Assembly: GCA_030649735.1 (NCBI GenBank)
Contig: JAUSFL010000032.1
Coordinates: 1-24,235 of the forward strand
Source: Candidatus Iainarchaeum sp.
GTDB lineage: Archaea > Iainarchaeota > Iainarchaeia > Iainarchaeales > UBA10191
Direction: 5' to 3'
DNA length: 24,235 nucleotides
Part shown: positions 3,353 to 24,138 of the stretch, one piece after another
Layout of the letters: every line of letters begins with the position of its first letter
Position numbering within the stretch: position 1 is the stretch's first letter
Program-made: the position numbers and the translations under genes
Notes under the pieces: generated by a model
The model's database searches: none
What the model was told of the DNA's origin: nothing
The model's input: only the letters and a program-made list of their open reading frames with translations

Positions 3353-3537
3353 AATTTTTCCCTCTCGATTTTCTTGTCCAATAATGCTTCAACCGCAAGT
3401 GCTTGAATTTTGTTCTGAATTCTCAACTGTTCAACAATTTCCTCACCCACTTGTTCTATGATTTCTTCAATCATTCTATTGTTTGCTTCCGCTGGCTGAA
3501 AACCATTCTGTTTTTTGGTTCTGCTCATTATTCTCAC
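3349..3537 (-). CDS. Small hypothetical protein between PrgI-like and VirB4 (true start probably 3528 or 3474)
   Basis: Stop overlaps the VirB4 ATG (ATGA); helical acidic sequence fills the operon gap. Confidence 0.5.
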   Translation of the reverse strand: MRIMSRTKKQNGFQPAEANNRMIEEIIEQVGEEIVEQLRIQNKIQALAVEALLDKKIEREKL

Positions 3538-4399
3538 TCTCCTTTAAAACCGTCAATGAACTCAAGTAATCGTTCTGGGCTTCGAAAAAGCCTTCAAAAA
3601 AGTTTGAAACCAAGCTCACAAGCTCTTGAGTTTTCAATCTTTCAGTTAATAAATTGCAGCGTTTTAGCTTTTCCCTGCAAACTTTTACTCTAATGTCTAA
3701 CTGGCTTTCCAATAGTTTCAAGTCTTGAGGTTTGTTTTTCAAGTTAAAGAAGTCAATTTTGCTCGGGCTTGCTGGGATTATGACATAAAACAGGCGGTTC
3801 TTGATTTTCTTTTTTTTAATGAAGTCTTGAATGAATCTTTTGAAAGACTCAAATTGAACCTGTAAGCCCTGTTTTTTAGTGCTTTCAACTTTTTTTTGTA
3901 AAACCGCCAAATACTCTGTTAGTGAAAGATTTACTGTTCTCATTACTATCTGGATTGGAAAATCCAAAGAATTCAGGAAGTCTTTGTACGCGCTAATAAT
4001 GGCTTTTTGCTCTTCGCCAGAAAGCATTGCAAAATGAATAGGAATTACCTGGATTACTGCCCTCGCGCTACCCCCGTTCAGGAAGATAACGTCATTTTTG
4101 ATGTCTTTTACTTCAACAAAATTGTTCAAACTTTTGTCAAAATAGCCTTGAATTCTAGGGGTTGAATAATAGTCTTTAATGATTTTCAAGTATTCAAACA
4201 AGTTCAGGAAGGCAAAGCCAACTCCCAAACCCATGAATACTAGCGAAATTGCAATTTTCACGGCAAAGTCTAAGTTAGTCTTGAAGAATACTACTCCAGC
4301 TAGGCAGCCGAACAAGCCAATCCAGGTTACTTGCCAGAAAGTTAGTCCGAACACTATTTTTTCAGTATACTTTAAGTTTTGTGGAATTTCATAAGGCAT
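3476..4399 (-). CDS. PrgI/VirB3-like membrane protein fused to a soluble TrsD/VirB4-N-like domain
   Basis: YEIPQNLKYTEKIVFGLTFWQ plus two TM helices (PrgI signature), then FAMLSGEEQKAII..FLNSLDFPIQI; upstream of VirB4. Confidence 0.8.
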   Translation of the reverse strand: MPYEIPQNLKYTEKIVFGLTFWQVTWIGLFGCLAGVVFFKTNLDFAVKIAISLVFMGLGVGFAFLNLFEYLKIIKDYYSTPRIQGYFDKSLNNFVEVKDIKNDVIFLNGGSARAVIQVIPIHFAMLSGEEQKAIISAYKDFLNSLDFPIQIVMRTVNLSLTEYLAVLQKKVESTKKQGLQVQFESFKRFIQDFIKKKKIKNRLFYVIIPASPSKIDFFNLKNKPQDLKLLESQLDIRVKVCREKLKRCNLLTERLKTQELVSLVSNFFEGFFEAQNDYLSSLTVLKESENNEQNQKTEWFSASGSKQ

Positions 4400-4468
4400 T
4401 TTTTCTCACTTTCCTCTTCTTCATTATTTCTAAAACTAAAATTGAACAATCGCACATTTTCAAACACC

Positions 4469-5311
4469 TCAAGCTAAAGCCATCATTGCAGGCCCAATCA
4501 TGCTTTTTCCAAGCTCTGCAAAATTCACGTTAACTCCGGCAGAACTTAAAGCCCGCTGGACTGCAAAAAACACTAAAACAATATTGGCAATTCCAACAAG
4601 CAAAAAACCCAGGCTTGGAGCCAGCAAGTTAATGTAAGGCAGGTAAGAGAATTCTGTCCAAAACAATTGCACAGCAATCAGAATTATTACATCTAAAACG
4701 TTCATGAAGGCTGCCGCGCCTAGCAATTGCAAGATTGCAGAACCGTAGGCTTTTACTGGTGGAATAAAGTACAGGAATAATCCGATTGGGAACAGCATTA
4801 CTCCAATAATCAGGAAGATTTGGCGCAAAACCAGAGTAATCACTGTCAAGAACACGGAAATTGCCAATGTCAATAGCCAAAGCAAGTCTGTCGCATTCAA
4901 GTTTTGGACTGAAAAAACATTCTCCAAGTTAGAATTCCATAAAGTTACTGAAATTCCCGAACTCAAGCTCAAAAGCAGTGAATAGAATAGCAAGGAAGCA
5001 TTAACTGCAATAACCAAGAGCAGGGCTTGCTTAAACCACTCTTTAGCCTCTGCCCTTTGCACTGCATCATAGCTTCCGAACAAGAATTTGAAGCCCACAA
5101 TCAAGAAAATAAGCAAGTAAAAGCAAGAGATTACTGTAATAATTACCAGCCACAAGTTTTGGAAGTGAAAAGGATCAATGTTTACTGTAAGCATTGCTTT
5201 AGCAATGTCAAACAAAGGCTGCACAAAACCAGCAAGCAAATGACCGATTCCAGAAAAGATAGAATTAACCAAGTCTCCCGGGAGATTGGTTATTGAATCC
5301 CACAAGCCCAT
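4469..5311 (-). CDS. VirB6/TrbL-like polytopic membrane protein
   Basis: About 6 hydrophobic helices; RQIFLIIGVMLFPIGLFLYFIP resembles the VirB6/TrbL core; operon position. Confidence 0.65.
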   Translation of the reverse strand: MGLWDSITNLPGDLVNSIFSGIGHLLAGFVQPLFDIAKAMLTVNIDPFHFQNLWLVIITVISCFYLLIFLIVGFKFLFGSYDAVQRAEAKEWFKQALLLVIAVNASLLFYSLLLSLSSGISVTLWNSNLENVFSVQNLNATDLLWLLTLAISVFLTVITLVLRQIFLIIGVMLFPIGLFLYFIPPVKAYGSAILQLLGAAAFMNVLDVIILIAVQLFWTEFSYLPYINLLAPSLGFLLVGIANIVLVFFAVQRALSSAGVNVNFAELGKSMIGPAMMALA

Positions 5312-6729
5312 TAGAACACCTTCCGAAAAGCATGCCTGGCAATCAAAAAAATGAAAAAATAAGCCGCAAGAAAACCAAAAGCCCCAATTAAAATATTCAA
5401 ACTTTGATTGTCTATTTGAGCAGTTCGCAAAGTTGCTGCTCCGTAAAATTCAGAATCCTGAAAACTGGCAGTAATAAGTCCATTGGATTCTTGGGAGTTG
5501 AAGTCTATTGGGACTTGGCCTTGAGAGTCAGTAATTAAAGTGCTTGATTTACTTCCCGCCGAAACATTAATTGTTTTGAAAGGCAATGGGTTTCCCGCAT
5601 TGTCAGAAAGTTTCAAAACATTCAAGTCAGTATCAAACTGCAAAACTGCCCGCTTCAATGTTTTAATATTGCATTCTTGAGTGTTTTGCTCAAAGCTTGA
5701 TGTTATTGTTTGCTGGCAGTTTTCCAAGCTCGTAGTGCCTAACCTGATTTTTCTTGAAGATTGAGAAAAATTAGAATCTAACTCCAAAAAGCCATTAACG
5801 TGCTCCGTAAACTCTGACCTTCGAGTAACAAACAATACTCCGTCAAGGTCAGAGTTTAAGTCAAAGTTTGCTTCTGAAAATTCAAAAGAGCCAGTGTTTG
5901 AAGAGAGTTTGAAATTATTGATTGGAGCGTTAGAATCCAGTAAAATTGTCAAAGTTTTCAAGTTGTTTGAATCTTCAAGCAATAACTCGGTTTTAAAATT
6001 CTCAATTACTGTTTTAGCGTTAAAAGAATCAATAATGTTTACTGAATCAGTTTGGTATTCTGTATTGTCAAAGTCGCAAGTTGTCCAATAATAATCATAA
6101 AAGCGGTGTTGTGTGAGCTTGTAATGGTCTGTTCTCAACCTTGCAGATAATGAAAGGCGAGTTTCAAAATTTAATGTTCCGTAATCTTTTGAAGTAATGT
6201 TGTAAGAGACGTCTTTTGAATTTCCTAAAAGCTGGTTGTTCAGGAAAGTCTGCAAGCTCTCGCTTAATGAATCGTAAGAGTAATTTGTTTGGCAATCCCA
6301 AGATTGCGTGCTTGAAGGTAAAACAATAGAAAAACCATAATTTGAGAATTCCTGGCCCGCTGGTTTAGCAAACCATTCATTAGAATTCAAGTCAAAAAAA
6401 GAGTTCTCAACGCTAATCACTTTTACCCAAGCGTTCTGGATTATTCCATTACTTGCTGGAGTAATGCTCCGTGGCGGTTGAGTAAAAGATAGATTCTTGT
6501 TCCATTCAAAAACAGAACTAAAAGAGCCTAATTCTCCTTGTTCGTTTGAAAGGTTAAAGAACAAATCTTGTTGTTGCTCTGTGTTCAAGCTAGAGTCCTG
6601 AAAGATTTTCTGGCATTCTTCAAGCTTCCAGTCATTAAAGCGCGAGCAATCGCTTTCAGAAATTGCAGTTGCAAAACTTCCAATCATCAAAAACACCACT
6701 AAAAACGCAAACCTCATTTGAAAAACCAA
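5311..6729 (-). CDS. Secreted, C-terminally anchored protein of the T4SS-like operon (start probably the ATG of MRFAF)
   Basis: Signal peptide, Cys pairs, Ig-like LSDNAGNPLPFKTINV..TDSQGQV segment, C-terminal TM helix and basic tail. Confidence 0.7.
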   Translation of the reverse strand: MVFQMRFAFLVVFLMIGSFATAISESDCSRFNDWKLEECQKIFQDSSLNTEQQQDLFFNLSNEQGELGSFSSVFEWNKNLSFTQPPRSITPASNGIIQNAWVKVISVENSFFDLNSNEWFAKPAGQEFSNYGFSIVLPSSTQSWDCQTNYSYDSLSESLQTFLNNQLLGNSKDVSYNITSKDYGTLNFETRLSLSARLRTDHYKLTQHRFYDYYWTTCDFDNTEYQTDSVNIIDSFNAKTVIENFKTELLLEDSNNLKTLTILLDSNAPINNFKLSSNTGSFEFSEANFDLNSDLDGVLFVTRRSEFTEHVNGFLELDSNFSQSSRKIRLGTTSLENCQQTITSSFEQNTQECNIKTLKRAVLQFDTDLNVLKLSDNAGNPLPFKTINVSAGSKSSTLITDSQGQVPIDFNSQESNGLITASFQDSEFYGAATLRTAQIDNQSLNILIGAFGFLAAYFFIFLIARHAFRKVF

Positions 6730-6743
6730 CGCAACGGGGGGAG

Positions 6744-6773
6744 AACTCCCCCAACCTTCCGGCTGGGAGAGTT
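6744..6773 (-). other. RNA hairpin after the pilin gene
   Basis: Minus strand AACUCUCCCAGCC-GGAA-GGUUGGGGGAGUU: 13-bp stem with two G-U pairs and a GNRA tetraloop. Confidence 0.6.
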
Positions 6774-6782
6774 TTTGGGAGT

Positions 6783-7100
6783 TTAAACTGTTGCGGGGGA
6801 TGTCAAAAAACTAACCATTAACGGCGCAACCCAAACCACGACCAAGCCGACAATTGCATAACCAAGCATTGACTTAGCTCCCTCGCGAGCTTGGATATTG
6901 TCGCCGGAAAACATGAACTTGACGCCGGCAAAAGTAATAGCCAAAACAGCAACTACTGAAATAACCGCCTTAACCAAGTCATAAATCTTGTCTAATGGCG
7001 CGGTAATCTGGGAAACGTCAGTCGCGGCATGCACTGTAGGCAAAGCCAGCAAAAACACAGCGAACAAAACCACAACAATATTAGGGTAAATTCCTTTCAT
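6783..7100 (-). CDS. TrbC/VirB2-family pilin
   Basis: Signal peptide ending VHA, two hydrophobic helices separated by GVKFMFSGDNIQAREGAK, AIVGLVVV; SD GGAGG at 7109-7113; first gene of the operon. Confidence 0.8.
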   Translation of the reverse strand: MKGIYPNIVVVLFAVFLLALPTVHAATDVSQITAPLDKIYDLVKAVISVVAVLAITFAGVKFMFSGDNIQAREGAKSMLGYAIVGLVVVWVAPLMVSFLTSPATV

Positions 7101-7235
7101 TCAAAAAACCTCCAAGTTTCATACAACCCATTCTGCAGGCTTCAAATAAATACTAGCAACTCAAGACTTCTCATGAGAAAACCTGACAAAGGCTAATAAA
7201 AACCTCGAAAACAGAACTAATGCAGGTGATTGAAA

Positions 7236-7394
7236 GTGCAAACTGAAACGATCCAAAAAAACAAAGAACTCCAAGTTACTCTTGAAGAGTTTGAAAAAAT
7301 GCACTCAAAACCATTCATGTATATTCTAGAACAATACGAAAAATGGCAAAAACTCAAAGAACAAGCAGGAATGCAAACAAGACTACAGGACTAA
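7236..7394 (+). CDS. Small hypothetical protein (52 aa), divergent from the pilin operon
   Basis: Not in the ORF track. SD GGTGA at 7225-7229, GTG at 7236, MQTETIQKNKELQVTLEEFEKMHSKPFMYILEQYEKWQKLKEQAGMQTRLQD, stop converges on the lipoprotein stop. Confidence 0.5.
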   Translation: MQTETIQKNKELQVTLEEFEKMHSKPFMYILEQYEKWQKLKEQAGMQTRLQD

Positions 7395-7398
7395 TCCT

Positions 7399-8085
7399 TT
7401 AAGATTTTGCATTTAATTGTGCTTCAAAAACTGAATTAAAATATTTTCCAACCCGTTCAAACACTTTGTTCTGGTCGGAATTAAGCCCGGTAGTATAACC
7501 TAATTGAGCAATTAATTTGTTTTTTCTAACAAAAAACAAGTAAATGTCAAAGTTGCCTTCTCTTGCATAAACATCTTGATAAAGCTGTTTTGGCTGGCCA
7601 TTGAAGATTTTGTCCAATTTCTCATAATTAGTGCCTTTAAACACTATGGAATAATCTCCCAGTTTTGGGGCGTCTATTTCCCTCATCCAATTGGCTTGCT
7701 CTCTGATTTTAGGGACTTGCTGGTTATATTCCAAAATACTGTTAGTGTCAGAAACTTCATTAGCATACCGGAAAGAAACCCAGCCAATCTTGGAATTGTC
7801 AATCTTATTATCGTAACCAACTCCAAAAGCCGTTTTATAACCAAGAACCACTTTATTCAAGTCTATCCCAATAACGTAACCGTCATTTGCTACCTCAGTT
7901 ATTGTCAAATAAGCATTATAGTCTGGAAAAGAAAAGTTTACTGGCTCTTTAGATTCAACCAACGCACTGCTACTATTCTTATCAATATTCTTGTCAGCTA
8001 GGTCTGTTTTTTGTGTGTTCTGGTTAGCGCAACCAGTTAATAGGATCGCAAGAATAAGCCCTAACAGCATGATTGTTTTCTTCAC
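7399..8085 (-). CDS. Lipoprotein of unknown function
   Basis: MKKT-hydrophobic-LLTGC lipobox; GTGA overlap with the upstream ORF. Confidence 0.75.
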   Translation of the reverse strand: MKKTIMLLGLILAILLTGCANQNTQKTDLADKNIDKNSSSALVESKEPVNFSFPDYNAYLTITEVANDGYVIGIDLNKVVLGYKTAFGVGYDNKIDNSKIGWVSFRYANEVSDTNSILEYNQQVPKIREQANWMREIDAPKLGDYSIVFKGTNYEKLDKIFNGQPKQLYQDVYAREGNFDIYLFFVRKNKLIAQLGYTTGLNSDQNKVFERVGKYFNSVFEAQLNAKS

Positions 8086-8294
8086 GTTTCAAGAAAGGAA
8101 TTAGACATATTTAAACGTTGCTTGATTAAAAAACCGCGATAGCCGCAAGCCTTGCACTTTCCTAAAGCTGCCTTTTGCTTTCCAACCAAAGTCCCAAGTT
8201 CCAGCAGGCCTGGGTTAGCGTTCTCGCATTTAGGGCACTTTACTCCAAAAGGCAATTCGCTTTTCTTCTTTTTCCAGAAAATCAAGCAATCCAT
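8082..8294 (-). CDS. Small Zn-ribbon protein
   Basis: CPKC...CKACGY knuckles; coupled to the lipoprotein gene. Confidence 0.6.
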   Translation of the reverse strand: MDCLIFWKKKKSELPFGVKCPKCENANPGLLELGTLVGKQKAALGKCKACGYRGFLIKQRLNMSNSFLET

Positions 8295-8384
8295 AAAACC
8301 GCCATTAAAATTTTATACTAGGACTCCCTAACCAATACAGCTAATTCTAAAACAATCACAAAACAAAAATTATCCCGCCCTTAT

Positions 8385-9443
8385 TTAGAAGATACTTCCC
8401 TTTCCCTGGCCTGCAAGCATTGTGTCCACAAATGCCAATACTTCTTCGGAATTCCTGACTTCTCCGACAATGACCCTGTCAGGCCGCATTCTCAAACTGT
8501 CAATTATCAAGTCTTTCATTCCGACATTCAAGCCTTCGCTCACGTTCAATTTTATCAAGTGCTCGTGCATTATCTTGAGCTCTGGAGTCTCTTCAACTGC
8601 AATGATTCTTTCATTTTCAGGCACAAAGCAAAACAGCGCGTTCAAAAGGCTGGTTTTTCCAGAGCCAGTGTTTCCAGCAATCAAAACGCTGGAGTCTGTC
8701 TGGAATGCAATTTGCAAAAAAGCCAAGGCTTCTGCAGTTGCTGTCTTGTTTGCAGCCAAATCCAATGGAGAGAATGGCTTTTTCCCGAACTTTCTGATTG
8801 TCACATTAGGCCCAAGGAAAGATACTGGCTCTATGCTGCATGAAAGCCGCGAGCCGTCAGGAAGCATTGCGTTAAGCCTTGGGTTTTGCATGCTCAAGCG
8901 CTTTCCCAACCGCCTGGCCATTTTGTTCACTGCATTTTTCACGCTGCTTTGGTTTGCGTAAGAAAAATTAGTCTTTAGCCAGCCTAATTTTCTGTCAAAA
9001 ACCCTCACCGGCTTTTCTTTGCCCAAGCCGGTTATTGCGATTTCTTCAATGCTTTCGTTCTCCAAAAGCCTTGACAATGGCCCAAATCCGAATGCTGAAA
9101 GCCTTAAGATTTCCAGCAAGTATTCTTCCTGCCCGGAGTCAATTTGAACCAAATTCCTGTCGCAGAATTCCTTGAAGAAAAACTCCAAATTGTTCAATTC
9201 TTCAAACTCCGGGTTTGACAATAGCTTGAATTCTTCAAAGGCCTCGGCCAAAAGCCCTGCCTCTTGAATGCTTAATTCCGGAAGATTGATGCAGTAAAGC
9301 AATTCCTTGCCTTTCAATTCAACAATCCTGCAGCTTTCATTCTCAAAAACTGTTTTCAGCATTTTTTCGCGCGCTGGCTGCCATAAAACCCAGCCTAAAA
9401 GAAAGCCTGCCTTGGCAGTTTCATCAATTGCCTGTTCTTCCAT
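8385..9443 (-). pseudogene. TadA/CpaF/VirB11-family secretion ATPase, 3'-truncated
   Basis: FGPLSRLLEN..IEEI, LPDGSR, TIRKF, Walker A GNTGSGKTS, AVEETPEL, SLRMRPDRVIVGEVR; stops at LAGQGKGSIF before the TxHA His-box and the C-terminal part expected for the family. Confidence 0.75.
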
Positions 9444-9572
9444 TAAACCAGAAGAAAAAAACCAGGAGCTTATTTTAAAGAAAGCGAAACTTTAAGCAAT
9501 TGACGAAGCAAGATCTTGCCAAGCCTGTAAAAAAATTAAAAAAAAGAAAAAGGAAAAAAAAGAAGCAGGGCT

Positions 9573-12500
9573 TTACTTTTTGCCCTTGCTTTTCTTTCCT
9601 TTAATTACAAATACTGCCGCAATGACTACAATTATTACAATCACTGCAACCAAAACAAGGTTGTTGTTTTCCTTCTGCTTTGCATCTGTTGTCGGGCTTG
9701 GCGCAGGTGCTGGATTATTCACTGGCGGAACAATGACTTCTTTTGCAATGCAGCTTCCCGCCTTGCAAACCTTGCCTGTACCGCAGCTTGAATTGTCAGC
9801 TATTGCAGCATTAGAGCAAGTGTTGCTTGAGCAAGTGTCTTGCGTGCATGGGTTGCTGTCGTCACAATTCATTGTAGGGCACAAGTCTGCAGCCGCTTCC
9901 GCAAATTCTGCAACAACTGCCTGCGGTATGGAATCAGCAGTGGCTTGGCTGATGTTTTTTGCAGTTGAATAATTCACTGTTGCAACTCCGCCTGCGGGAA
10001 TCTCGGCAATCTCAAACTCTATTATTGGATCGTCCTTTACAATCCTGTATTTCACTCCTGCCGGAAATTGCAGTTCTGAAGCGCTTAGAGCCACTGTTTT
10101 TGGCACTTCAACCAATACTTTCACTTTCTTCAAGATTTTGGTCTTGTTAGGATTGCTTACTGTGAAAGTTATTGTTGTAGTGTATGTTTTCACTCCGCTT
10201 GCGGAAGTTGTCTCGTCAACGTTTACTTCCTTTGTGACAGTGGTTTTTCCAACTGCTTCTGAAGCCTTTTGAATTGCATTCTCTGAAGCTCCAGCGCTTG
10301 TCAAAAGGTTTCTAATGTCTTCAGCGCTTGGCTTTCCTTCTGAAGTCTTGTGGATTATGTTCTTTTTTCCTTCAGGTGTTTCTGCTGGAGGGCCTGTTGT
10401 TCCTCCGCCAGGGCTACCGCCGCCTGGACTTGCTCCAGTATTGTTTCCACTTGTTGCGGCTGTTAAAGTGAATGCAACGCTTGTTGTGGCATTATTGTCT
10501 GCCCTGTCTATTGCCCTAATGTAAATTGTGTGGGCTCCAACAGTTTCTATTGTCACATTATAGCTTGTTGAAGTGGAATTGTCAACCCAGCTTCCGCTAT
10601 CAACTTTTGCCTGGTATAGCTTGATTCCACTTCCTCCAGTATCGCTTCCAGAGTATGTTACTGTAACATTTTGCGTGCCTGCTGCATAACTGTATCCTGC
10701 AGTTGGAGCGCTTATTGAAACTGTTGGCGCGTTATTGTCAATGTAGACGTTTCTGGAAACAACCAAAGCATTTCTGTCCGGCTGGTTAATGTCCAAATCA
10801 ATCCAGTGGTTTCCGTCAGGCACTAATGCTAAGTTAAAGTCTGCAGTGCTTGGCACCCAGTTGAAAGTGCAGTTTGATGAATTATTGTACTTTGCGTTAG
10901 TGTCTGAGTTTAATGGATTTAGTATGCAAGTGAATGCGAATGCGTTAGAATCTACTGATAAAATGTTGAAGTCTTGGGCTATTAGATTGGTCATTGCGCC
11001 GTTAGTGTCGCTCCAGTAAAGCTTTGCATGCAGGAAAGACTGAAGGGGAGATGTAGCCAAGTGCACTGCATTCCAGTCTGCTGCCCAGTTGAAGTCAAGC
11101 AATAATCCTTTCTTTCCGCTTGCATAAGTTGTCACTGTCGGAGTATTGAAGTTAACATCCAATGCAGTGGTTCCATAGTTGGAGAACCCAGTAACTTTGA
11201 AAGTTATGTTACCGTCTTTTGTGTTAGGATCAACAAACCAGTTGTAGTCAGAGCAAACATTGCTTGCACATTTAACGCCGTCCCTTGCAATTACAGGCAT
11301 TTTGCCTGAAAGGCTTCGCACGTTAAATATCGTGATGTTTGCGTCAATGCTGAATTCTGGCATTTGTGCAGAGTCAATTCCGAACAGGTTCTTGCTCTGA
11401 TTCCTCGTCATGTTGTTGTTATAGTTTGCCTGTGGAGTCTTCATCAAGTTTACGTCAGTATTCATTGCAATGCGCGCCAATGCAGTGGTCTTTGCATCAT
11501 TCAAGAATTCTACAACCATTCCTTTCATTGCTTGAATTTCCGACTGCTGTACTTTATTGTTTTTCATGACAACATCTATCGGGTATCTGAATGCATTTAC
11601 ATCGCCTGCTTCCTTTCGATAGCACGAGTGGTTTCCGTCACAAATTAGCACTGTAACATTCATGTCTGCAGCCAGTGTTTGGCTCGGCATTGCATAAAAG
11701 CTGGTTGTTCCTCCAAACAAGTTTACATTAATATCGTCAACATCAGACCTTATCCTGTTGTTAACATCTGTAACTCTTGCATAAAGCAAGTAAGGGTTGC
11801 TGAACGGGGTTAGAGTTGTTGGAACAACGACATTGACGTCAAACATGTAAATGAAGCGATTACTGTCAATTCCTGTTGCAATATTTCCAATTCCTCTGCC
11901 GATTGCACCAGCATTAATATCAGTCAACCTGTCAATCCTGACTCTGTTTCCATCGCGGGAAAGCGCGGCAGTTGGAGTTGCCTGGTTTCCATAGCCAGAA
12001 TATACTGTTCCGTTTCCATCAATAATAAGGTTCAAATCAAGGCTTCCAATCCTTAAAGCAATGTTTTGGTCTTTGTAAAATCCATATCCTCTCACATGGA
12101 AATTCTTGTCTAAAGCCCCAAATGGAGTGTATTGTAGCCCATTAGGTGTTGAAATAAATCTGTTAAAATCGCCTGTTGAAGCGCCCCTATTGAAATTAAT
12201 ATCAAAGTTTTTATCTCTTTCTGAGTTTCTATCTGGAATTATCATTAAAAAAGGGGTTACAAAAATTTGCAATGTTGCTTGGATTGCGTTAGGGTTAAGG
12301 TTGTTGTTGTCTCTTATTGCAATAATGTTCATTCCTTTTCTTGCTGTTGAGGGAATGCGCAAGAAAACATTGGCATCAGTTCCATTATGGTCCATATTGA
12401 TTGCCCTACCTCCAATATTTCCGTCTCCAACAATTATGAGTAAATTGGTGTCGCTTCTTATTACATTGAAGTCCTTATTTCCAACATTTGCATCTACTAT

Positions 12501-12725
12501 TCTAGAAACAGTCAATGCGACATTACTGTCTGTAGGCAGCATTATTGTCAGAATAAAATCGTAGTTTTTGTCCGGCGCCAAGCCCCTGACCAATACATTG
12601 ACATTTGCGTCTACTGAGTAATATACGTAATTGTTGTCCGGCAGGCTCATGCTTGGAATTGCGCTTGCAACTCCAGTAATTGCTGCCATTGCCAAAAGTA
12701 TGAATAAGAACTTCAAAATTTTCAT
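9573..12725 (-). CDS. Large membrane-anchored surface protein (S-layer-like/adhesin), D-x-N rich
   Basis: Signal peptide, Asn-rich beta domains, Ig-like DNNAPTVSISAP domain, Gly/Pro linker, VEVPK..DPIIEF domain, CDDSNPCTQDTC module, Pro linker, TM helix and lysine tail. Confidence 0.85.
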   Translation of the reverse strand: MKILKFLFILLAMAAITGVASAIPSMSLPDNNYVYYSVDANVNVLVRGLAPDKNYDFILTIMLPTDSNVALTVSRIVDANVGNKDFNVIRSDTNLLIIVGDGNIGGRAINMDHNGTDANVFLRIPSTARKGMNIIAIRDNNNLNPNAIQATLQIFVTPFLMIIPDRNSERDKNFDINFNRGASTGDFNRFISTPNGLQYTPFGALDKNFHVRGYGFYKDQNIALRIGSLDLNLIIDGNGTVYSGYGNQATPTAALSRDGNRVRIDRLTDINAGAIGRGIGNIATGIDSNRFIYMFDVNVVVPTTLTPFSNPYLLYARVTDVNNRIRSDVDDINVNLFGGTTSFYAMPSQTLAADMNVTVLICDGNHSCYRKEAGDVNAFRYPIDVVMKNNKVQQSEIQAMKGMVVEFLNDAKTTALARIAMNTDVNLMKTPQANYNNNMTRNQSKNLFGIDSAQMPEFSIDANITIFNVRSLSGKMPVIARDGVKCASNVCSDYNWFVDPNTKDGNITFKVTGFSNYGTTALDVNFNTPTVTTYASGKKGLLLDFNWAADWNAVHLATSPLQSFLHAKLYWSDTNGAMTNLIAQDFNILSVDSNAFAFTCILNPLNSDTNAKYNNSSNCTFNWVPSTADFNLALVPDGNHWIDLDINQPDRNALVVSRNVYIDNNAPTVSISAPTAGYSYAAGTQNVTVTYSGSDTGGSGIKLYQAKVDSGSWVDNSTSTSYNVTIETVGAHTIYIRAIDRADNNATTSVAFTLTAATSGNNTGASPGGGSPGGGTTGPPAETPEGKKNIIHKTSEGKPSAEDIRNLLTSAGASENAIQKASEAVGKTTVTKEVNVDETTSASGVKTYTTTITFTVSNPNKTKILKKVKVLVEVPKTVALSASELQFPAGVKYRIVKDDPIIEFEIAEIPAGGVATVNYSTAKNISQATADSIPQAVVAEFAEAAADLCPTMNCDDSNPCTQDTCSSNTCSNAAIADNSSCGTGKVCKAGSCIAKEVIVPPVNNPAPAPSPTTDAKQKENNNLVLVAVIVIIVVIAAVFVIKGKKSKGKK

Positions 12726-13681: not shown

Positions 13682-16090
13682 TTAACGCAAGTTCTTGTTC
13701 AAAAGCGTCAAGGCCAGTATTGCAAATGCCGGAATCAGCAGGACAATTGCCTCAAAGCCCAGATTGCCTATTGTGTTTCCCTTGACCATTACTTCGCTGA
13801 GCATTGTTATTGAAACAGTCAATGGCAGGACTTGCGCAAATCCTTGGATTATCGGGTTCATTAACTCTAAAGGCATTATGACTCCGCTCAGGAAAAGCAT
13901 TGGAATAATGAAAAGCAATGACATCAGGATTGTCGTTCCCTGGTTTTTCGTGAAGTTTGAAATCAAAAGCCCCCAGTTAATGAAAGCGAAAGAGACGAGG
14001 ACAATTGCCAAGAACACTTCAATAAGGCTTCCTGCAATTGTTATCTTGTAGTTTGTGAAATTGTCCAGCAGCAAAAGCAACGCAATTATTATTGCGGCCT
14101 GGATCAAGGCAAAAATCAGCTGGCCTAAAATTTTTCCTGCAAAGAGAATTGATTTTGGAGTAGTGCTTAAAACCATCCTGCTGTAAGCGCCTTGGTTTCT
14201 TTCGTCAACAAAGCTGACTCCAGTCAAAAGGATTGTGGTAAGCAATAGCAATAGCACAAGCGCAATTGGCACTGCAATTCCAAGCCTTTCAACCTTGAAC
14301 ACTTGGATTTTGTTCAAAATCAAAGGGTCTGCCAAGAATTCAGGGCTTATTCTCCCAAGCTCTTTCAGTGAGTCCATGAAAGAGCCAATCATTCTTTTGG
14401 ATTCCTTGAGCTTTGCCCCGACTTCCTTTTTTTGCTCTTTGGAATTTGCTATCAAGGTTTTGACTTCACTGAGTGTTTGGTCCAGCTTGTTTACAAAAAC
14501 TTCCATTTTGTTCAAGTCATTCTGCGTTTCTGAAATGTCAGTCTTCAGTGCCTGAATGTCCTGTTTGTTTTTCTGCAGTTTTGCCCGAATTCCAGTTTCC
14601 GGCTGGTTTATTTTTGCGGAGAATTCAGCGAGGTCTACTTCAATTCCTGAAAGGTCTGTGTAAACTCCGCTTAATTCTGTTTGAACTTCATTAATTTGCG
14701 CGTTAATGTCATCAACAACTCCGAGCAGTTCAGTCCTTGCAGGCTCTGGGCTTTGCTCAATGGTTTGCCTAGTTGAAGAAAGCCTTGCGCTCAAATATCC
14801 GATGTCTCCTTGGCTTTTTGCTATCTTCACTTTGTAAGCTGCGACTTTTGTTCTTGTAGCGTTGATTTTGGAATTCATGTCTTCAATAGTGGCCAAAAAG
14901 CCGTCAAGTTCAGAATCAAATTCGTCAATTTTTTCGTTAAACTGGCTTATTTTTTCAGACTGCCTTGAAAGAGCGCCTTTGGCGTCAGCAATGTTCAATT
15001 CATTAAGGTCTGCTTCCAATTGGTTGAGTTTTCTGTCGCTTTCATCAAGCTTTAGTATGAAATCGTCAATTCTTGAAACTTCGTTTCCCAAATCCTTGTT
15101 TATTTGCCCAAGCTCTCCCCAAATTTCCTTCAATAGGGACTGGGACATTGAATATCCAATGTTTTGAACTTGGCTTTTTGCGACTTCAAAAAAAATTGCT
15201 GAACTGCTTATTGAAGAATTGTCATAATACAAGTCTATGACGTATTTTCCAAACTTGGATTCTGGATTGTTCACTACAATTCCAACCTTGCTTTCCCTTT
15301 TTTTTATTGACTCAAGGACTTTTTCCTTTGAGTTAAAATTGTGCATTTTGACAAGGCCTGATTTTGAAAGGCTTTGCTTAAAGTAGTCAATGTTGAAGTC
15401 TTTCACGCTTTTTGGCGCGTAAATTGCGACATCAACTTGGGTTATTGCATTGTTGCCTCCAAAAGACAATGCCAGTGTTGCCATTACAACAACAGCCAAT
15501 GTAAGCGCGGTAAGCAATCCTGCCTTTTGGCTTTTTATCAAATTCAATTCTTTCAGCGCAATCTTAAAAACAGTCAAGCCCGGAAGCTCGTCAATTTTTT
15601 CAAAAAGTGGGTTTCCTCTGGATTCTTTTTTTGTTTTTTCCAATGCTTTTTTTGAAAGCTCTTTTGGACCTTCAGCAATTATTTGCTCGTTTAGATCAAC
15701 AACCATTGTCTTTGCCAAGCCATCGCCAACTCGTCTCGTGTCTGGGTTTTTTCCTTTAGCCAAGGCTATTTGGAAAAATGCAATCAACTCGGTTCCAGGA
15801 ATCAAGAATATACAATTTCTAAGGATTGAATCCCAAATTCTTGCTGGCTGTGAATTACTGATTTTTATTGTTTTGAGATTCAACAATTTTTTTCCAATGC
15901 TTTGGCCTGAAAGCAATCCGTCTTTGCAGAGCATGTACACAACAGCGATCAATCCGCCAAGGTTAATGGAATAAATTGAAAGGTTCAATTGCCAAAAAAC
16001 AAGAATGATTGCAAGCGCGACAAGGCTGTCTGCAATGAATGCCGCAGTCCTTTTCCAAAGTCCTCCCCCAATGTAGTTTATTTCAACCAT
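13682..16090 (-). CDS. ABC-2 type permease with N-terminal RDD domain and long extracellular coiled coil
   Basis: KRTAAFIAD, GQSIGKKLLNL, RRVGDGLAKTMVV (RDD); ERNQGAYSRM, GKILG, FLSGVIMPLELM, LPLT (ABC-2); heptad-rich central region. Confidence 0.85.
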   Translation of the reverse strand: MVEINYIGGGLWKRTAAFIADSLVALAIILVFWQLNLSIYSINLGGLIAVVYMLCKDGLLSGQSIGKKLLNLKTIKISNSQPARIWDSILRNCIFLIPGTELIAFFQIALAKGKNPDTRRVGDGLAKTMVVDLNEQIIAEGPKELSKKALEKTKKESRGNPLFEKIDELPGLTVFKIALKELNLIKSQKAGLLTALTLAVVVMATLALSFGGNNAITQVDVAIYAPKSVKDFNIDYFKQSLSKSGLVKMHNFNSKEKVLESIKKRESKVGIVVNNPESKFGKYVIDLYYDNSSISSSAIFFEVAKSQVQNIGYSMSQSLLKEIWGELGQINKDLGNEVSRIDDFILKLDESDRKLNQLEADLNELNIADAKGALSRQSEKISQFNEKIDEFDSELDGFLATIEDMNSKINATRTKVAAYKVKIAKSQGDIGYLSARLSSTRQTIEQSPEPARTELLGVVDDINAQINEVQTELSGVYTDLSGIEVDLAEFSAKINQPETGIRAKLQKNKQDIQALKTDISETQNDLNKMEVFVNKLDQTLSEVKTLIANSKEQKKEVGAKLKESKRMIGSFMDSLKELGRISPEFLADPLILNKIQVFKVERLGIAVPIALVLLLLLTTILLTGVSFVDERNQGAYSRMVLSTTPKSILFAGKILGQLIFALIQAAIIIALLLLLDNFTNYKITIAGSLIEVFLAIVLVSFAFINWGLLISNFTKNQGTTILMSLLFIIPMLFLSGVIMPLELMNPIIQGFAQVLPLTVSITMLSEVMVKGNTIGNLGFEAIVLLIPAFAILALTLLNKNLR

Positions 16091-16095
16091 AAAAA

Positions 16096-17058
16096 TCAGT
16101 CTTTCAGTTTCCTTCCAGTCAAGTTAATGAACACGTCTTCCAGTTCAGGCTCTCTTAAAGTTGAGCTTTTGATTTCATAGCCTTTGGCGTTGATGAAGTC
16201 TGTAATCATTGAAATTTTTTCAAGGCTGTGCTCTTGCGAAAGCGCAATGACTATTGCGTTTCCTAAGCTTGTGACTTCGCTTCCGATAAGTATTCTTTTC
16301 AAGGCCTCGACAAAGTCGCTTTCTGGAATTTTTTCAAGCATTACAACAAGCACTTTGAAGCCGCCGTATTCTTCAATTAGTTTTTTCGGGCTTTCGCAAA
16401 CGAGGAGCTTTCCTTGATTGATGATTCCAACCCTGTCGCACAAGTGCTCTGCCTCATCCATGTAGTGCGTTGTAATGCAAATTGTCTTTCCATCGTCCTT
16501 CAACGTTTCAATGATTTCCCAAAACAATTTTCTCATTTTTGGGTCAAGGCCGACTGTTGGCTCGTCGAAAAAAATCACGCGCGGGTCATGGACTAGAGAG
16601 CACGCAATGTTCAAGAGCCTTTGATAGCCTCCTGACAAATTTTCAACCTTGCGGTTTTCAAACTGCTTTAACTGCAGCCATTCAAGCAGGTATTCCCTTC
16701 GCTTTTTCAGCTCTTGGCCCTTGATTCCGTAAAGAGTCCCAAAAAAATCAAGGTTTTGCTTCACGCTGAATGAATAGAACGCGGCAATGTCTTGCGGGAC
16801 AATCGCGACTTTTCCCTTGATTAGCGAGTGCTGTTTTTTCAGGTCTGCGCCAAAAAACCTAACATTTCCTGAATCAGCGTCCATCATTCCCATCAGGATC
16901 TTTGATAAAGTGCTTTTTCCCGCGCCATTAGGCCCTAAAAGCCCGAAAACTTCATTCTCCAGAATGTAAATGCTAATGTCTGAAAGCGCCGCAAAACTCC
17001 CGAACTTTTTTGACACTTTTTCCGCAACGACAATTGCTTTCTTTTCCTTTGAAGGCAT
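16096..17058 (-). CDS. ABC transporter ATP-binding protein (DrrA/CcmA-like)
   Basis: GPNGAGKS, LSGG, FFDEPTVGLDP, TTHYMDEAE, C-terminal LEDVF. Confidence 0.95.
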   Translation of the reverse strand: MPSKEKKAIVVAEKVSKKFGSFAALSDISIYILENEVFGLLGPNGAGKSTLSKILMGMMDADSGNVRFFGADLKKQHSLIKGKVAIVPQDIAAFYSFSVKQNLDFFGTLYGIKGQELKKRREYLLEWLQLKQFENRKVENLSGGYQRLLNIACSLVHDPRVIFFDEPTVGLDPKMRKLFWEIIETLKDDGKTICITTHYMDEAEHLCDRVGIINQGKLLVCESPKKLIEEYGGFKVLVVMLEKIPESDFVEALKRILIGSEVTSLGNAIVIALSQEHSLEKISMITDFINAKGYEIKSSTLREPELEDVFINLTGRKLKD

Positions 17059-18543: not shown

Positions 18544-19482
18544 ATGCCTGATTTTTTTATTAACTACTTTCAAGACGCCACTTCCCTTAATTTTGACATT
18601 TACATTTCTGGTATTCAACCAGAAATCAATGAGTTAGTATGGAAACTTGGCGGGCCGGCAAAAGCTTCGCTAATGCTAGGCGTAAAATACTCTCGCTTGA
18701 AAGAATGGCATTTGGGAAGAAATCCAATTTCTTTTAATCAATTAGAGAAGATTCTTGCGCTTTTTGATTCTCAAGTTCAAGAAGAGTTCAAGGAAAGAAT
18801 TCTTTCAAAAGGATTGTTGGCGAGTTGCAGATATTCCCAAAATGTTGTGGCATTTCCAAAGCAAATGTCTGCTGATTTGGCTTATGCCATTGGCTTAATT
18901 TTAGGGGATGGCAGCTTGACTGGTGATTCTTCAAACAAAAAAGGAAATTGGACAATTTCAGTATTCTTTGATAATTCAAGTCATTTGGGGATTTATCAGG
19001 AAATAATATTACATGAATTAGGGGTTAAAACAAAAATTTATGGCCAAAAGCGAAATTGTTTAGCTTGTTGTTTTTGCTCAAAGCCATTTCACTGGTTTTT
19101 TCGAGCAATTTTTGGGATTAAGAACGGCTACAAAAGTAATGTTATTGAGATTCCTGAAATAATTCTTAACTCAAATAATAATGAATTAATTATTGCTTGC
19201 TTGCAGGGGCTTTTTGACTCTGACGGAACAGTAATTGCCAAAGGCAGGAAAGTCGTAAAATTTTCAAGCACCAGCGAGAAAATCGCAAGGCAAGTTTCTG
19301 AATTGCTTTTTTCTTTTGGCATTCGAAATTCTGTTGATAAATGGCTGAAAAATGAGCGTTTCAAAATGCTTTATACTGTCCGAATTCAGTCTGCACAAGC
19401 TATTTTAACTTTTGCGAACATTATTAGTTTTAGGCATCCGCTTAAGCTACAAAAGCTGATGTTGAATAGCCCCGTAGTGTAG
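18544..19482 (+). CDS. Free-standing double-motif LAGLIDADG endonuclease-family protein with N-terminal HTH-like region
   Basis: LAYAIGLILGDGSL and CLQGLFDSDGTV motifs, FSSTSEKIA, ISFRHPLK; TATA-like TTTTATAT at 18516-18523; no intein splice motifs seen. Confidence 0.9.
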   Translation: MPDFFINYFQDATSLNFDIYISGIQPEINELVWKLGGPAKASLMLGVKYSRLKEWHLGRNPISFNQLEKILALFDSQVQEEFKERILSKGLLASCRYSQNVVAFPKQMSADLAYAIGLILGDGSLTGDSSNKKGNWTISVFFDNSSHLGIYQEIILHELGVKTKIYGQKRNCLACCFCSKPFHWFFRAIFGIKNGYKSNVIEIPEIILNSNNNELIIACLQGLFDSDGTVIAKGRKVVKFSSTSEKIARQVSELLFSFGIRNSVDKWLKNERFKMLYTVRIQSAQAILTFANIISFRHPLKLQKLMLNSPVV

Positions 19483-20011: not shown

Positions 20012-20098
20012 TTCACATTACCTCTCACTAAATTTTAGCTTTCGCTCTTTAAAACATTCATTTATGATTTTTGTCTTATTACTTTCATTTTGCGGCAT

Positions 20099-21261: not shown

Positions 21262-24138
21262 TTAATCCCAGACATCCAGTCCGTTGTTGTATTTCATTCC
21301 GCTGTGAAGATTGGTTGGCTTTTCTGCATTGTCTGGTTTTTTGAATTTTCTTCCAGGAGTCGGGTTTCCGGGGCTTTTTCCAAACTCTATTTTTGGGATT
21401 TTGTCAAAAACTCCTTCATTGCCCCATTTTCCGCCCTTGTCATTGCGGCTTTTCAGGAACAGCGCAATTCCAGCCAGCAAAATTATTATTGCAATTGCAA
21501 GGCCTAAAAGCAGGAAGCCATTATTTGCCTGCTGTGCAGTTCCTTTGCCTGCTGCCGGGCTGTTTTTGTCAGAAACTATTGGCGGGGTTTCAAAGGCTTT
21601 TGCGTTCTGCGCTGAAGCAAGCAATAATGCAGAGTTTTTGTCAGTGAATTTTTTGTCCAGCGAGTATGAAAGCTCCGCGCTTTCTCCGGCCGCAAGCTCT
21701 ACATCGAACGCGATTACCGGATCGTCTTTAAGGATTGTGAATTTCAGGCTGCTTTTCAGCATGCTTGCGCTTGAAGCAAAGCTTTTTGGGACAACTTCAA
21801 CTATCCTGAATTTTTTCTTCTGCTTTTCATTGTTTTTTAGAGTGATTACAATTCCAGCCAGGTAGTATTCTGAATTCTGGTCTTTAATCCGGATTATTTG
21901 GATTGTTCTTTCAATTCCTGAATTGCCTGTCAATTGAACTGCATTGTCCACATTGCCGTCCTGCAAAAATGCCTTTGCCAGCTCTACAAGCCCTTTGGTT
22001 TTTGATTTTTCCGCAATGCTTGCCTTTTCTGACTTTTCAACGCTCATTTGAAAGTCATTGTTCCAGTCTTCAATCAATGCGTTAATCCTGTTCAATGCGT
22101 TTTGAAGCCCCGCGGCGTTCTTGTCGCTATTTGCTTTTTCGGCATTCTTGATTTCGTTAAGAATTTGTGTTTTGTGCTCTATTGACTGGTTTGAAAGCGC
22201 GAGATTGTAATTCTCTATTCTTGCAATTATTCCTTCAATTCGTGATTTGGCATTCAAAAGGCCTTTTGAGAGTTCTGGAAGGTTTGTTGAATTTATGTCA
22301 TTGCTACTGGCCGCTTTTCCCACTTTCACTGTCAAAAGGTCTGTTGCTGAATTATTGCTTGTGTCATAGGCAACGGCGCTTAGGACATAAGTTGCTTTGT
22401 CAAGGCCTTCAGTGTTCCATTCTGCAATGTAATAATTTCCCGTCTTTGAAGTCACTGTTGCAATCAGCTTGCTGCCTTGGTAAAACAAGACTTTCTTTAT
22501 TCCTTTATTGTCTGAGGCAGTGGCTTTCATTGAAACCTTGCCTGAAACTGTTGAATTATTTGCCGGCTCTGCCCAAGTTACTTTAGGGTTTGTGGCGTCT
22601 GATGAATTATCCGGCGTTGTGTCTGGAACACTGCTTGTTGAGACAGTGAAGCTTGTCGAGTATTCCGAGGAATTATTGTCGGCATTGTCTGTTGCAATTA
22701 CATAAATTGTGTGCAGGCCGCTTGTCACTGAAGTGTAATTTCTTGAGCATTCGCTTCCCAAGTCAGCCCATGCCCCAGTGTCAAGCTTTGAATAATACTT
22801 GTAAATTCCGCTGTTGGAATCCATTCCAGAGCAGCTTAATGAAACAGTGGTTGAATTTACTGTCGTGTTGTTTAAAGGCGAACCGAATGCAATGCTTGGC
22901 CCGTTATTGTCAAACATTGTTGAGTCAGTGTATGAAGAGCTCCAAGTCCCGGAGCTTTTCCTGAATTGCGCGTAAATTGTCTTGCTTCCGTTTGATGGAC
23001 TGCAGCCGTAAGTCGTTGAAGTAGTGTCGAACGAAGAGTAAGTTGTTGCGAAAGCTATTGCTCCGGTCCAGCTTGAGTCATTGCATGAAAATTTCATTTC
23101 CGCTGTCCCTGAAGAGCCAGTCAAAGTCAATGTTGGCGTTGAAGTTTTTGAATAGTCCGGGACTGTAATGCTTCCTGTTGGCGCGCTCGTGTCAATTGCC
23201 GCGGCGCTTGCTTCTGTGGAGTCTGTGCCTTCATTGGCGCTTTTGTCCAAAGCGCTTACTTTGAAATAATAAGTTGTTCCATTAACCAATCCTGTTTTTG
23301 TGTATGTTGTAGTGCCTGAAGCAATTGTTGCTATCAATGTTTCGGAGTTTGTGTCAAAGCCAGAAATAGTTGACATGTAAACTTTGTATTGGTTCAAGTC
23401 AAAAACGCTGACTGCACTCCAGCTTAATGCGACTTGAGTGTTTCCCGCGGTTGCCGAAAGCCCTGAAACTTGCGCTGGCGCAGTGTTGTCTGCGTAAATA
23501 ACGCTTGAAATGCTTGCCTGTGTTGCAGAGTTTCCCGCAGTGTCGTTTGTGTCGATTGTAATGTTGTAAGTTCCGTTGGCGTCAATTGATGCAATGTTGT
23601 AATCGCAATGATAATTTGTTCCAAAAGCAGTGCAGCCAGTTCCTGAAAGCGTTGCGGCGTTTCCGCCGACTTTAACGCTGATTGTTGCATTGTTCACTCC
23701 TTCAGCGTCATTCACGTCAAAGGCAAGCCAGTTGCTGTTCACTGTGCTGCTTGATGAAGGAGTTATTGTTGTAATCGTTGGGACTGTGTTGTCAAGGAAG
23801 ATCCAGTCGCTTGCTGTTGCAGTGTTTCCGTCAGTTGATTCAGCCCGCAAGTAAACTGTTCGGTTTCCGTCGCCTGCAATGCATCCAGCGCCAGTCTTGA
23901 TGTCAAAGTCTGTCTTTGATGCCCCGTAAGCTTCAAGAGTGCTCCAGGCTGCGTTGTCGCAGGAAAATTGCATTCCGTTCGCGTCTGAAGCGCTGATACT
24001 TAAAGTGGGGGTTGAGTCTGAATTGTTAGTGTATTTTGGGGAAATTCCAAAGCTTGAAATCGTTGGCGTCAAAGCCAACCCGAATGATAAAAAAACAAAA
24101 AAGCCCAGCATTAATAAGACGAAATTCTTCCCACTCAC
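21262..24138 (-). CDS. Large anchored surface protein with Ig-like and FN3 domains
   Basis: Signal peptide; FN3 PAQVSGLSATAGNTQVALSW..GLVNGTTYYFKVSALD; Ig-like ATASDNKGIKKVLFY..AVAYDTSNN; VEVVPK..DPVIAF domain; TM helix and cytoplasmic tail. Confidence 0.88.
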   Translation of the reverse strand: MSGKNFVLLMLGFFVFLSFGLALTPTISSFGISPKYTNNSDSTPTLSISASDANGMQFSCDNAAWSTLEAYGASKTDFDIKTGAGCIAGDGNRTVYLRAESTDGNTATASDWIFLDNTVPTITTITPSSSSTVNSNWLAFDVNDAEGVNNATISVKVGGNAATLSGTGCTAFGTNYHCDYNIASIDANGTYNITIDTNDTAGNSATQASISSVIYADNTAPAQVSGLSATAGNTQVALSWSAVSVFDLNQYKVYMSTISGFDTNSETLIATIASGTTTYTKTGLVNGTTYYFKVSALDKSANEGTDSTEASAAAIDTSAPTGSITVPDYSKTSTPTLTLTGSSGTAEMKFSCNDSSWTGAIAFATTYSSFDTTSTTYGCSPSNGSKTIYAQFRKSSGTWSSSYTDSTMFDNNGPSIAFGSPLNNTTVNSTTVSLSCSGMDSNSGIYKYYSKLDTGAWADLGSECSRNYTSVTSGLHTIYVIATDNADNNSSEYSTSFTVSTSSVPDTTPDNSSDATNPKVTWAEPANNSTVSGKVSMKATASDNKGIKKVLFYQGSKLIATVTSKTGNYYIAEWNTEGLDKATYVLSAVAYDTSNNSATDLLTVKVGKAASSNDINSTNLPELSKGLLNAKSRIEGIIARIENYNLALSNQSIEHKTQILNEIKNAEKANSDKNAAGLQNALNRINALIEDWNNDFQMSVEKSEKASIAEKSKTKGLVELAKAFLQDGNVDNAVQLTGNSGIERTIQIIRIKDQNSEYYLAGIVITLKNNEKQKKKFRIVEVVPKSFASSASMLKSSLKFTILKDDPVIAFDVELAAGESAELSYSLDKKFTDKNSALLLASAQNAKAFETPPIVSDKNSPAAGKGTAQQANNGFLLLGLAIAIIILLAGIALFLKSRNDKGGKWGNEGVFDKIPKIEFGKSPGNPTPGRKFKKPDNAEKPTNLHSGMKYNNGLDVWD

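Follow-up and report, generated by a model that had tools for sequence, protein, structure and literature searches.

Asparagine-linked glycosylation offers the closest described counterparts to the sequence pattern reported here. AglB/STT3 systems use the sequon N-X-S/T, and published work describes the Trp-Trp-Asp of the WWDYG motif, together with the DK/MI motif, as the Ser/Thr-binding pocket of the oligosaccharyltransferase (OST) (PMC8342417, PMC3703281), and Pro at +1 as excluded by OSTs (PMC8342417). Campylobacter PglB follows a ‘minus two rule’, D/E-X-N-X-S/T, on extracytoplasmic targets; according to PMC4894442, ClPglB reads the acidic −2 residue through a salt bridge with R331, and PglB accepts both D and E at that position. 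Here we describe a 24,235-nucleotide stretch of Candidatus Iainarchaeum sp. (GenBank assembly GCA_030649735.1, contig JAUSFL010000032.1), called the window throughout. On its reverse strand, the gene at 9573..12725, read as an open reading frame (ORF) with its translation, encodes P0001, a surface protein of 1050 residues; it encloses the region 10730-12640, which an original prediction made from the letters of the window had singled out as extremely rich in the tripeptide D-x-N, x being any residue. We find D-x-N to be a short linear motif under strong selection, specific to the extracytoplasmic parts of proteins in this archaeal lineage. Such saturation of surface proteins may represent an undescribed sugar-attachment site or an unusual structural motif, and the statistical signal is large enough for a clear experimental answer.

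Within residues 1-670 of P0001, D-x-N occurs 45 times, against 6.8 ± 2.3 in 1000 composition shuffles (maximum 17; z ~17), and 45 of the 54 Asp have Asn at +2. Closely related arrangements of the same or similar residues share none of this excess: D-N (3 observed, 6.9 expected), D-xx-N (3, 6.9), D-xxx-N (5, 6.8), the reversed N-x-D (6, 7.0), E-x-N (0, 0.7) and D-x-D (2, 4.3) all stay at or below expectation, as does N-x-[ST] (11, 11.2). With 54 Asp and only 5 Glu in this ectodomain, nearly all of its negative charge lies within the motif. Ser or Thr stands at +2 in just 6 of the 45 sites, a background level, so that these are not canonical N-X-S/T sequons, and the enrichment ends with the ectodomain, residues 671-1050 containing 2 D-x-N where 1.0 is expected. 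The flanks are biased as well: position +1 is hydrophobic in 32 of the 45 sites and position +3 in 28 of the 45, against a background of 42%, an excess that probably places D and N on an exposed face just before a buried strand. Spacing between sites shows broad peaks at 5-7 and 11-13 residues and no period.

At the DNA level, 45 copies of GAYNNNAAY lie in codon phase 0 of the P0001 gene, as against 0 and 1 in the remaining phases and none on the opposite strand, and both synonymous codons are used for Asp and for Asn. This codon-phase specificity, with the use of both synonymous codons, rules out a DNA-level motif, such as a methylation or restriction site or a mutational hotspot, behind D-x-N. 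Hidden repeats are likewise ruled out as its source: Tandem Repeats Finder returned two trivial 2-copy matches only, and comparison of P0001 with itself by BLASTP found no internal repeat. The motif also recurs in a second surface protein of the window, P0002 (958 residues; 21262..24138, reverse strand), which carries Big_7 (E 6e-15) and fn3 domains and a C-terminal transmembrane (TM) anchor and contains 19 D-x-N where 4.7 are expected (z 6.7).

The 1.28-Mb genome yielded 1186 ORFs of at least 100 residues with a simple ORF caller, which we divided into secreted and cytoplasmic classes by a Kyte-Doolittle rule, a crude criterion compared with a trained predictor. Secreted-type ORFs (hydrophobic N-terminus and at most two TM segments; n = 191) contain 561 D-x-N against a shuffle mean of 322 (z 14.1) and ORFs with at least three TM segments contain 91 against 55 (z 5.2), whereas the 769 ORFs without TM segments are slightly depleted (390 against 435; z −2.4). 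The observed/expected ratio (O/E) is 1.73 for secreted proteins of this genome (561 D-x-N against 324 expected) and 0.90 for cytoplasmic ones. Only the combination of D, N and a spacing of two is enriched, E-x-N, D-N, D-xx-N, N-x-D and D-x-D lying at 0.7 to 1.0 of expectation (E-x-N at 0.93 genome-wide, D-x-D at 0.71 in the secreted class), and canonical N-x-S/T sits at chance level in the enriched surface proteins, one of which has 20 where 17.5 are expected. When every residue pair with a gap of 0-3 was scanned without prior choice, D-x-N came first among 1544 patterns for secreted proteins of the source genome, but only 1280th among 1600 for cytoplasmic ones; over three genomes it is first of 1544, 1034 and 966 patterns in secreted proteins, and 1280th, 1088th and 422nd in cytoplasmic ones. 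Two other pairs are strongly over-represented in the secreted class, YY (253 observed, 130 expected) and RI (265, 150), RI being among the top patterns in four of five genomes scanned; both may be artefacts of ORF calling.

Some 15-20 large proteins of this genome account for most of the excess, and the secreted ratio falls to 1.00 when the top 20 by z-score are removed, a removal that is itself biased. All but two of the 22 most enriched ORFs begin with a hydrophobic segment, and both exceptions abut contig ends. The top 20, which include Ig-like (immunoglobulin-like) adhesins and lipoprotein-like ORFs, mostly show no mutual similarity by BLASTP, and the N-termini of three adjacent enriched ORFs resemble, as read from sequence, class III (prepilin-type) signal peptides. 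Membrane proteins allow the two sides of the membrane to be compared within the same chains: across ten enriched genomes, with topology assigned by a crude positive-inside rule, outer loops contain 360 D-x-N against 162.7 expected (O/E 2.21) and inner loops 96 against 86.9 (1.10). The sites thus lie on the predicted extracytoplasmic side, as a sequon requires. What the original prediction had noticed by eye stands up to these counts: its hand tally of about 45 tripeptides in the first ~670 residues is correct, most Asp there do have Asn at +2, the sites form no tandem repeat and mostly lack Ser/Thr at +2, the motif recurs in the 958-residue protein and it is inconspicuous in cytoplasmic enzymes, here over the whole genome. 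The comparison that it had proposed with shuffled controls and with D-N, D-xx-N and E-x-N leaves the enrichment intact, as does that with N-x-D, and that of signal-peptide with cytoplasmic proteins confines it to signal-peptide and membrane proteins, on their predicted outer side.

An AlphaFold2 model of P0001, built with a 21-sequence alignment, presents residues 344-756 as tandem β-sandwiches of Ig or fibronectin type III (FnIII) type, most of this block having a predicted local distance difference test score (pLDDT) of 60-89; residues 18-343 fall below 50. Foldseek neighbours of the model are FnIII and bacterial Ig-like (BIg) arrays (top match 3pdd, E 2.3e-6), with SiiE and RTX adhesin extender domains among them. 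By this model and by the Big_7 and fn3 matches of P0002, both proteins are predicted to be tandem β-sandwich adhesins. The 21 sites within the confident part of the model occupy mixed contexts, six in loops, five within strands and the rest at strand starts, helix N-termini and strand ends; the six at strand starts match the 27% expected by chance, so that this position is not enriched. P0001 shows neither the periodic spacing nor the repeat units of a solenoid, an Asn ladder or a tandem-repeat protein. With SiiE, the BIg repeats of RTX adhesins and cadherin-type linkers it shares tandem β-sandwiches and a prominence of Asp and Asn near strand ends, and its residues 662-667, I-D-N-N-A-P, presumably resemble cadherin-like linkers. 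D-x-D is the core of classical DxDxDG and cadherin-type Ca loops. Unlike Ca-binding extender domains and cadherin linkers, P0001 has no repeat unit and is depleted in D-x-D; its D-x-N motif, moreover, is shared by unrelated proteins and differs in frequency from lineage to lineage inside a single family. The classical Ca loop places Asp at i, i+2 and also i+4, an arrangement at odds with the 2 D-x-D against 4.3 expected in residues 1-670.

A search of 1.84 billion cluster representatives returned 20 relatives of P0001 (21 matches with the query), and all 20 are enriched, with 18-65 D-x-N against 3-12 expected. Seventeen full-length members, at ~30% identity, were aligned; 40 column pairs carry D-x-N in at least 10 of the 17 sequences, and 116 further motif positions are unique to one sequence. 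Where a sequence lacks the motif at one of the 40 conserved sites, both residues are lost in 47 cases, N alone in 19 and D alone in 11, a coupled loss that we count in favour of a sequon. Pro at +1, which occurs in only 6 of 1016 D-x-N sites of the family against 65 of 1097 other Asn, is depleted ten-fold, and Ser/Thr at +2 is modestly raised (25.2% at D-x-N against 19.2% for other Asn).

We sampled 14 further genomes of the same order at ~80-200 kb each, which with the source genome gives 15; the phylum comprises 215 genomes in the collection, nearly all of one order, and the comparison is confined to that order. Secreted O/E ranges from 0.53 to 3.13 over the 15: ten genomes, the source included, lie at 1.62 to 3.13, three at 1.28 to 1.40, and two at 0.96 and 0.53. 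Cytoplasmic O/E is 0.63 to 1.13 in all 15, and control patterns are near 1 (0.6 to 1.5). An excess of Ser/Thr at +2 of D-x-N is missing in 14 of the 15, the exception being a weakly sampled genome (11 of 34 sites). A canonical or PglB-like dependence on Ser/Thr at +2 was seen in no genome set, apart from the modest excess in the P0001 family. Within a single family the trait is graded. Homologues of P0002 from enriched genomes hold 18-33 D-x-N against 4.6 to 6.4 expected, with 32-41% of their Asp in the motif, and one from a weakly enriched genome holds 11 against 5.2, with 11 of 96 Asp in the motif, which shows that the fold can be built with far fewer D-x-N sites.

The sole STT3/AglB of the source genome, a protein of 690 residues encoded outside the window (G000:C46:133248-135317), matches PF02516 at 93.7 bits against a cut-off of 24.5 and STT3A by phmmer at E 1e-16, its first DXD region, EFDPYW, aligning with EFDPYF. 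In these respects the lineage resembles known AglB/STT3 systems, and the depletion of Pro at +1 in the P0001 family may be a further likeness. Unlike them, it reads WWN where the pocket motif reads WWD, and its surface proteins carry canonical N-X-S/T at chance level: HMMER aligns NWWNQGHWIT of this AglB with SWWDYGYQIT of STT3A, so that only the two Trp and the Gly of WWDYG are kept. The third residue of the motif is D in 14, N in 7, S in 2 and G in 2 of 25 AglBs of the order, D in 19, N in 18, S in 2 and G in 0 of 39 metagenomic AglB homologues, and D in 53, N in 15, S in 6 and G in 6 of 80 species-level AglB loci. On the AglB tree the D/non-D state requires about six changes, and well-supported branches make at least three of these unavoidable. 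In the DK/MI motif, the residue at the second signature position differs among sequences (K, R, L, I, M, E or Q) in the D and the non-D group alike.

All nine sampled genomes whose AglB has N, S or G in the pocket position are enriched, with secreted O/E of 1.62 to 3.13; the six WWD genomes have values of 0.53, 0.96, 1.28, 1.38, 1.40 and 2.57. The outer C-terminal domain of AglB itself contains 19 D-x-N against 10.5 expected in the non-D group and 10 against 14.4 in the WWD group, small numbers that include one site common to both. Three side observations concern AglB and its kin. In one relative (G056) a second AglB paralogue (L047 2845-4863, reverse strand) carries Glu in the pocket position (WWELG), and the first copy reads WWNEG. 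In the source genome an ORF of 440 residues upstream of aglB (12-1334, forward strand, of AglB locus L001) contains Q-D-V-N. Two PMT_2-type GT-C glycosyltransferases are encoded besides AglB, outside the window (G000:C46:150987-151451 and G000:C6:20756-21193), and are candidate alternative modifying enzymes.

The reading that we tentatively favour, at somewhat under an even chance, is that D-x-N is a lineage-specific extracytoplasmic Asn-modification sequon, probably serving AglB-dependent N-glycosylation read through Asp at −2. The strict identity and spacing of the two residues, their restriction to the outer side, their presence in unrelated proteins, the graded variation within one family and the repeated replacement of the pocket Asp are as expected of such a sequon. 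The statistics, the confinement to one compartment and one side of the membrane, the differences between lineages and the altered pocket motif of AglB are observed; a modification of the Asn, the part of AglB in it and the way in which Asp would be read are inferred. The Asn of D-x-N would be the acceptor, N-glycosylation by the divergent AglB of the lineage being the most probable modification, and AglB would recognise Asp at −2 instead of, or independently of, Ser/Thr at +2. P0001 would then bear as many as one glycan for every 15 residues or so, at sites on the N-terminal flank of hydrophobic β-strands, and the cell would wear a dense glycan coat. More speculatively, a neutral N, S or G in place of the pocket Asp might tolerate or bind the substrate carboxylate, removing a negative charge that would repel it; since N-x-D is not enriched, a pocket that reads Asp would have to bind the peptide in the opposite polarity. 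We think it rather unlikely that the full form of the idea holds, in which the universal OST has been re-tuned in members of this phylum such that Asp at −2 alone specifies the Asn, giving a first natural OST sequon without Ser/Thr and about one glycan per 15 residues, with the pocket Asp of WWDYG, near-invariant elsewhere, freed to drift to N, S and G several times. Literature searches, covering what lies outside subscription journals and supplements, found no publication on a D-x-N sequon or on WWD-motif variants in these archaea. Because glycosite prediction and accounts of OST mechanism rest on the Ser/Thr pocket, D-x-N as the top extracellular pattern, in a lineage that has also replaced the pocket Asp repeatedly, would change that picture, and a true sequon would constitute a new acceptor code, of use in glyco-engineering and in the interpretation of DPANN cell surfaces.

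The likeness to PglB extends to an acidic residue two before the Asn and to extracytoplasmic targets. It does not extend to Ser/Thr, which PglB needs and which D-x-N here does not require at +2, nor to the enzyme, as the candidate here is an archaeal AglB acting in a putative modification, with no equivalent of R331 found in a column scan of 15 AglBs. A number of observations weigh against the sequon. Glu does not replace Asp as it can in PglB (E-x-N, 0 against 0.7 expected in P0001 and 0.93 genome-wide; 2 of 58 Asp losses in the P0001 family). About half of the D-x-N sites of that family are fixed in position at ~30% identity, which looks structural rather than like a glycan shield; D and N are its most conserved residue types after Cys (conserved columns: D 42, N 41, G 18, P 17, W 2), and replacements are turn-like, a lost Asn becoming D, G, T or S in 41 of 66 cases and a lost Asp N, S, T or G in 27 of 58. 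The mild depletion of Pro at +1 in secreted ORFs of enriched genomes (3.8% against 5.6%) is similar in cytoplasmic ones (4.1% against 5.4%). The second-strongest enrichment, 2.57 (187 observed, 73 expected), belongs to a WWD genome, with WWDQG in its AglB, that shows no preference for Ser/Thr at +2; loss of the pocket Asp is therefore unnecessary for enrichment, though seen only in enriched genomes, and this genome rules out a strict one-to-one link between the WW[D/N/S/G] state of AglB and enrichment. Pooled neighbours of the 80 AglB loci give a weak difference (secreted O/E 2.02 for non-D, 44 against 22; 1.44 for WWD, 47 against 33), which keeps its direction, on small numbers, once possible duplicates are removed (2.31 and 1.52). 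The multi-TM class of this test is confounded, nearly every locus giving exactly one D-x-N, which suggests a conserved syntenic membrane-protein gene beside aglB with a conserved site. The column scan of the 15 AglBs with known trait values yielded no convincing trait-linked basic residue, its best column lying in a variable loop beside a TM segment, and every comparison between genomes made here is constrained by their relatedness. To our knowledge, one site per 15 residues also exceeds the site density of known glycoproteins.

Many of these same observations speak for an unmodified structural motif, in which Asp at i and Asn at i+2 form an Asx-turn, a β-turn or a side-chain pair at a strand start, possibly metal-bound, and stabilise β-sandwich ectodomains or keep them from aggregating. 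We regard this as a serious possibility, if one that we would not back at even chances. It accounts for the rank of D and N behind Cys in conservation and for the 40 shared column pairs, for the turn-type substitutions, and for the rarity of Glu in place of Asp, which a requirement for a short Asx side chain would produce. The hydrophobic residues at +1 and +3, which put D and N on one face ahead of a buried strand, fit it, as do the Ig/FnIII-like array with Ca-binding adhesins among its Foldseek neighbours, a density of one site per 15 residues that is roughly one per strand, and the strong enrichment in a genome whose AglB keeps an intact WWD. It fits poorly, however, with the absence or depletion of the motif in secreted proteins of same-order relatives (0.53 and 0.96), with the P0002 homologue in which 11 of 96 Asp belong to a D-x-N (32-41% in homologues from enriched genomes), a sign that the fold does not require the motif, and with its presence in mutually unrelated proteins. 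In the P0001 model, moreover, sites fall in mixed secondary-structure contexts with no preference for strand starts (6 of 21 against 27%); D-x-D is depleted both in residues 1-670 and in the secreted class at large; a turn would usually tolerate D, N, S or T at i and N, D, G or S at i+2, yet only D followed by N is enriched; and this reading gives no account of why enriched lineages have lost the pocket Asp of AglB repeatedly. If structural, D-x-N would be a previously unnoticed, lineage-specific way to build extracellular β-sandwich proteins. Both possibilities had been put forward in the original prediction. For its Ser/Thr-free sequon, the controls, the compartment, the aperiodic spacing and the change of WWD to WWN speak in favour, but a WWD genome is enriched, the pooled neighbour ratios differ little and the basic −2 pocket that it had proposed to look for in AglB was not identified. 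Its Asx-turn alternative gains from the conserved positions, the turn-type replacements and the rarity with which Asp gives way to Glu, and loses from the variation of D-x-N between lineages on the same fold; the structural mapping that it had called for shows mixed contexts for the sites that are confidently modelled, and their aperiodic spacing indicates no solenoid.

Two further explanations make smaller claims on the data. D-x-N might be recognised by some other extracytoplasmic factor, such as a different GT-C glycosyltransferase, an enzyme that cross-links or processes proteins, or a binding partner, in which case the modified residue could be the Asp. The evidence from compartment, membrane side and lineage applies equally to such a factor, the trait is only weakly coupled to the state of the AglB motif (one strongly enriched WWD genome; pooled ratios of 2.02 and 1.44), which leaves room for another enzyme, and the two PMT_2-type GT-C proteins are at hand; since no candidate enzyme is linked to the trait and literature searches gave no precedent for a motif of this sort, we consider it improbable. 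We ourselves know of no precedent for a recognition motif of the D-x-N kind. The pattern might, finally, be an artefact of compositional heterogeneity, of a DNA-level motif, of hidden repeats or of the expansion of one cryptic domain family, and the concentration of the excess in some 15-20 large proteins, with its biased disappearance on removal of the top 20, together with the crude secreted and cytoplasmic classes, could be taken that way. The controls largely refute this. Patterns built from the same residues (D-N, D-xx-N, N-x-D) show no enrichment, the DNA pattern keeps to one codon phase (45 copies, with 0 and 1 in the others), neither DNA nor protein contains repeats, most enriched proteins have no detectable similarity to one another, and within membrane proteins the excess is confined to the predicted outer side; we hold an artefact to be very improbable.

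P0001 itself is laid out, from N- to C-terminus, as a signal peptide, the D-x-N-rich ectodomain, an Ig-like domain, a Gly/Pro-rich linker, a conserved C-terminal module also found in P0002, a Cys-rich stretch and a TM anchor with a Lys-rich tail. The predicted Sec-type signal peptide (residues 1-22; 12660..12725, reverse strand, as all parts of this gene) has a hydrophobic core and A-S-A ahead of the inferred cleavage site; its N-terminal hydrophobicity is 2.55, and residues 2-20 are helical in the model. The D-x-N-saturated ectodomain spans residues 23-670 (10716..12659). The Ig-like domain, at about residues 662-750 (10476..10742), is modelled as β strands and is common to both surface proteins, residues 409-488 of P0002 matching residues 662-744 of P0001 by BLASTP at E 6e-9. 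The TM anchor, read from the translation and counted as a TM segment, lies at about residues 1023-1041 (9603..9659) and is followed by a basic tail. P0001 has no Pfam match above cut-off, a sub-threshold match only, and the ~650 residues that follow the signal peptide belong to no Pfam family; an ESM Atlas search gave scores of 0.80 to 0.82, the level of chance.

Around the two surface-protein genes (8001-12000 and 20001-24000 of the window) the guanine-plus-cytosine fraction is 0.43-0.45, compared with 0.37-0.39 in most of the remaining window. Directly adjoining the P0001 gene lies a cluster resembling type IV secretion or conjugation systems (1100-9443), all on the reverse strand, which may be the cell-contact or DNA-transfer apparatus of a small archaeal genome. 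Its genes encode a VirB4/TraG-like ATPase (1100-3352), a PrgI-family protein (3476-4399), two unknown proteins (4469-5311 and 5311-6729), a lipoprotein-like ORF of 228 residues (7399..8085) with no Pfam family and a mild excess of D-x-N (6 observed, 1.4 expected), and a T2SSE/VirB11-like ATPase (8385-9443). On the other side of P0001, an ABC-2 permease is fused to an N-terminal RDD domain (13682-16090, reverse strand), the long insert of this protein finding matches in coiled-coil-type families alone, all of them sub-threshold; next to it lies an ABC ATPase (16096-17058). A free-standing ORF of 312 residues with a LAGLIDADG_3 domain (E 4.6e-20) lies at 18544-19482 on the forward strand, amid housekeeping-type genes.

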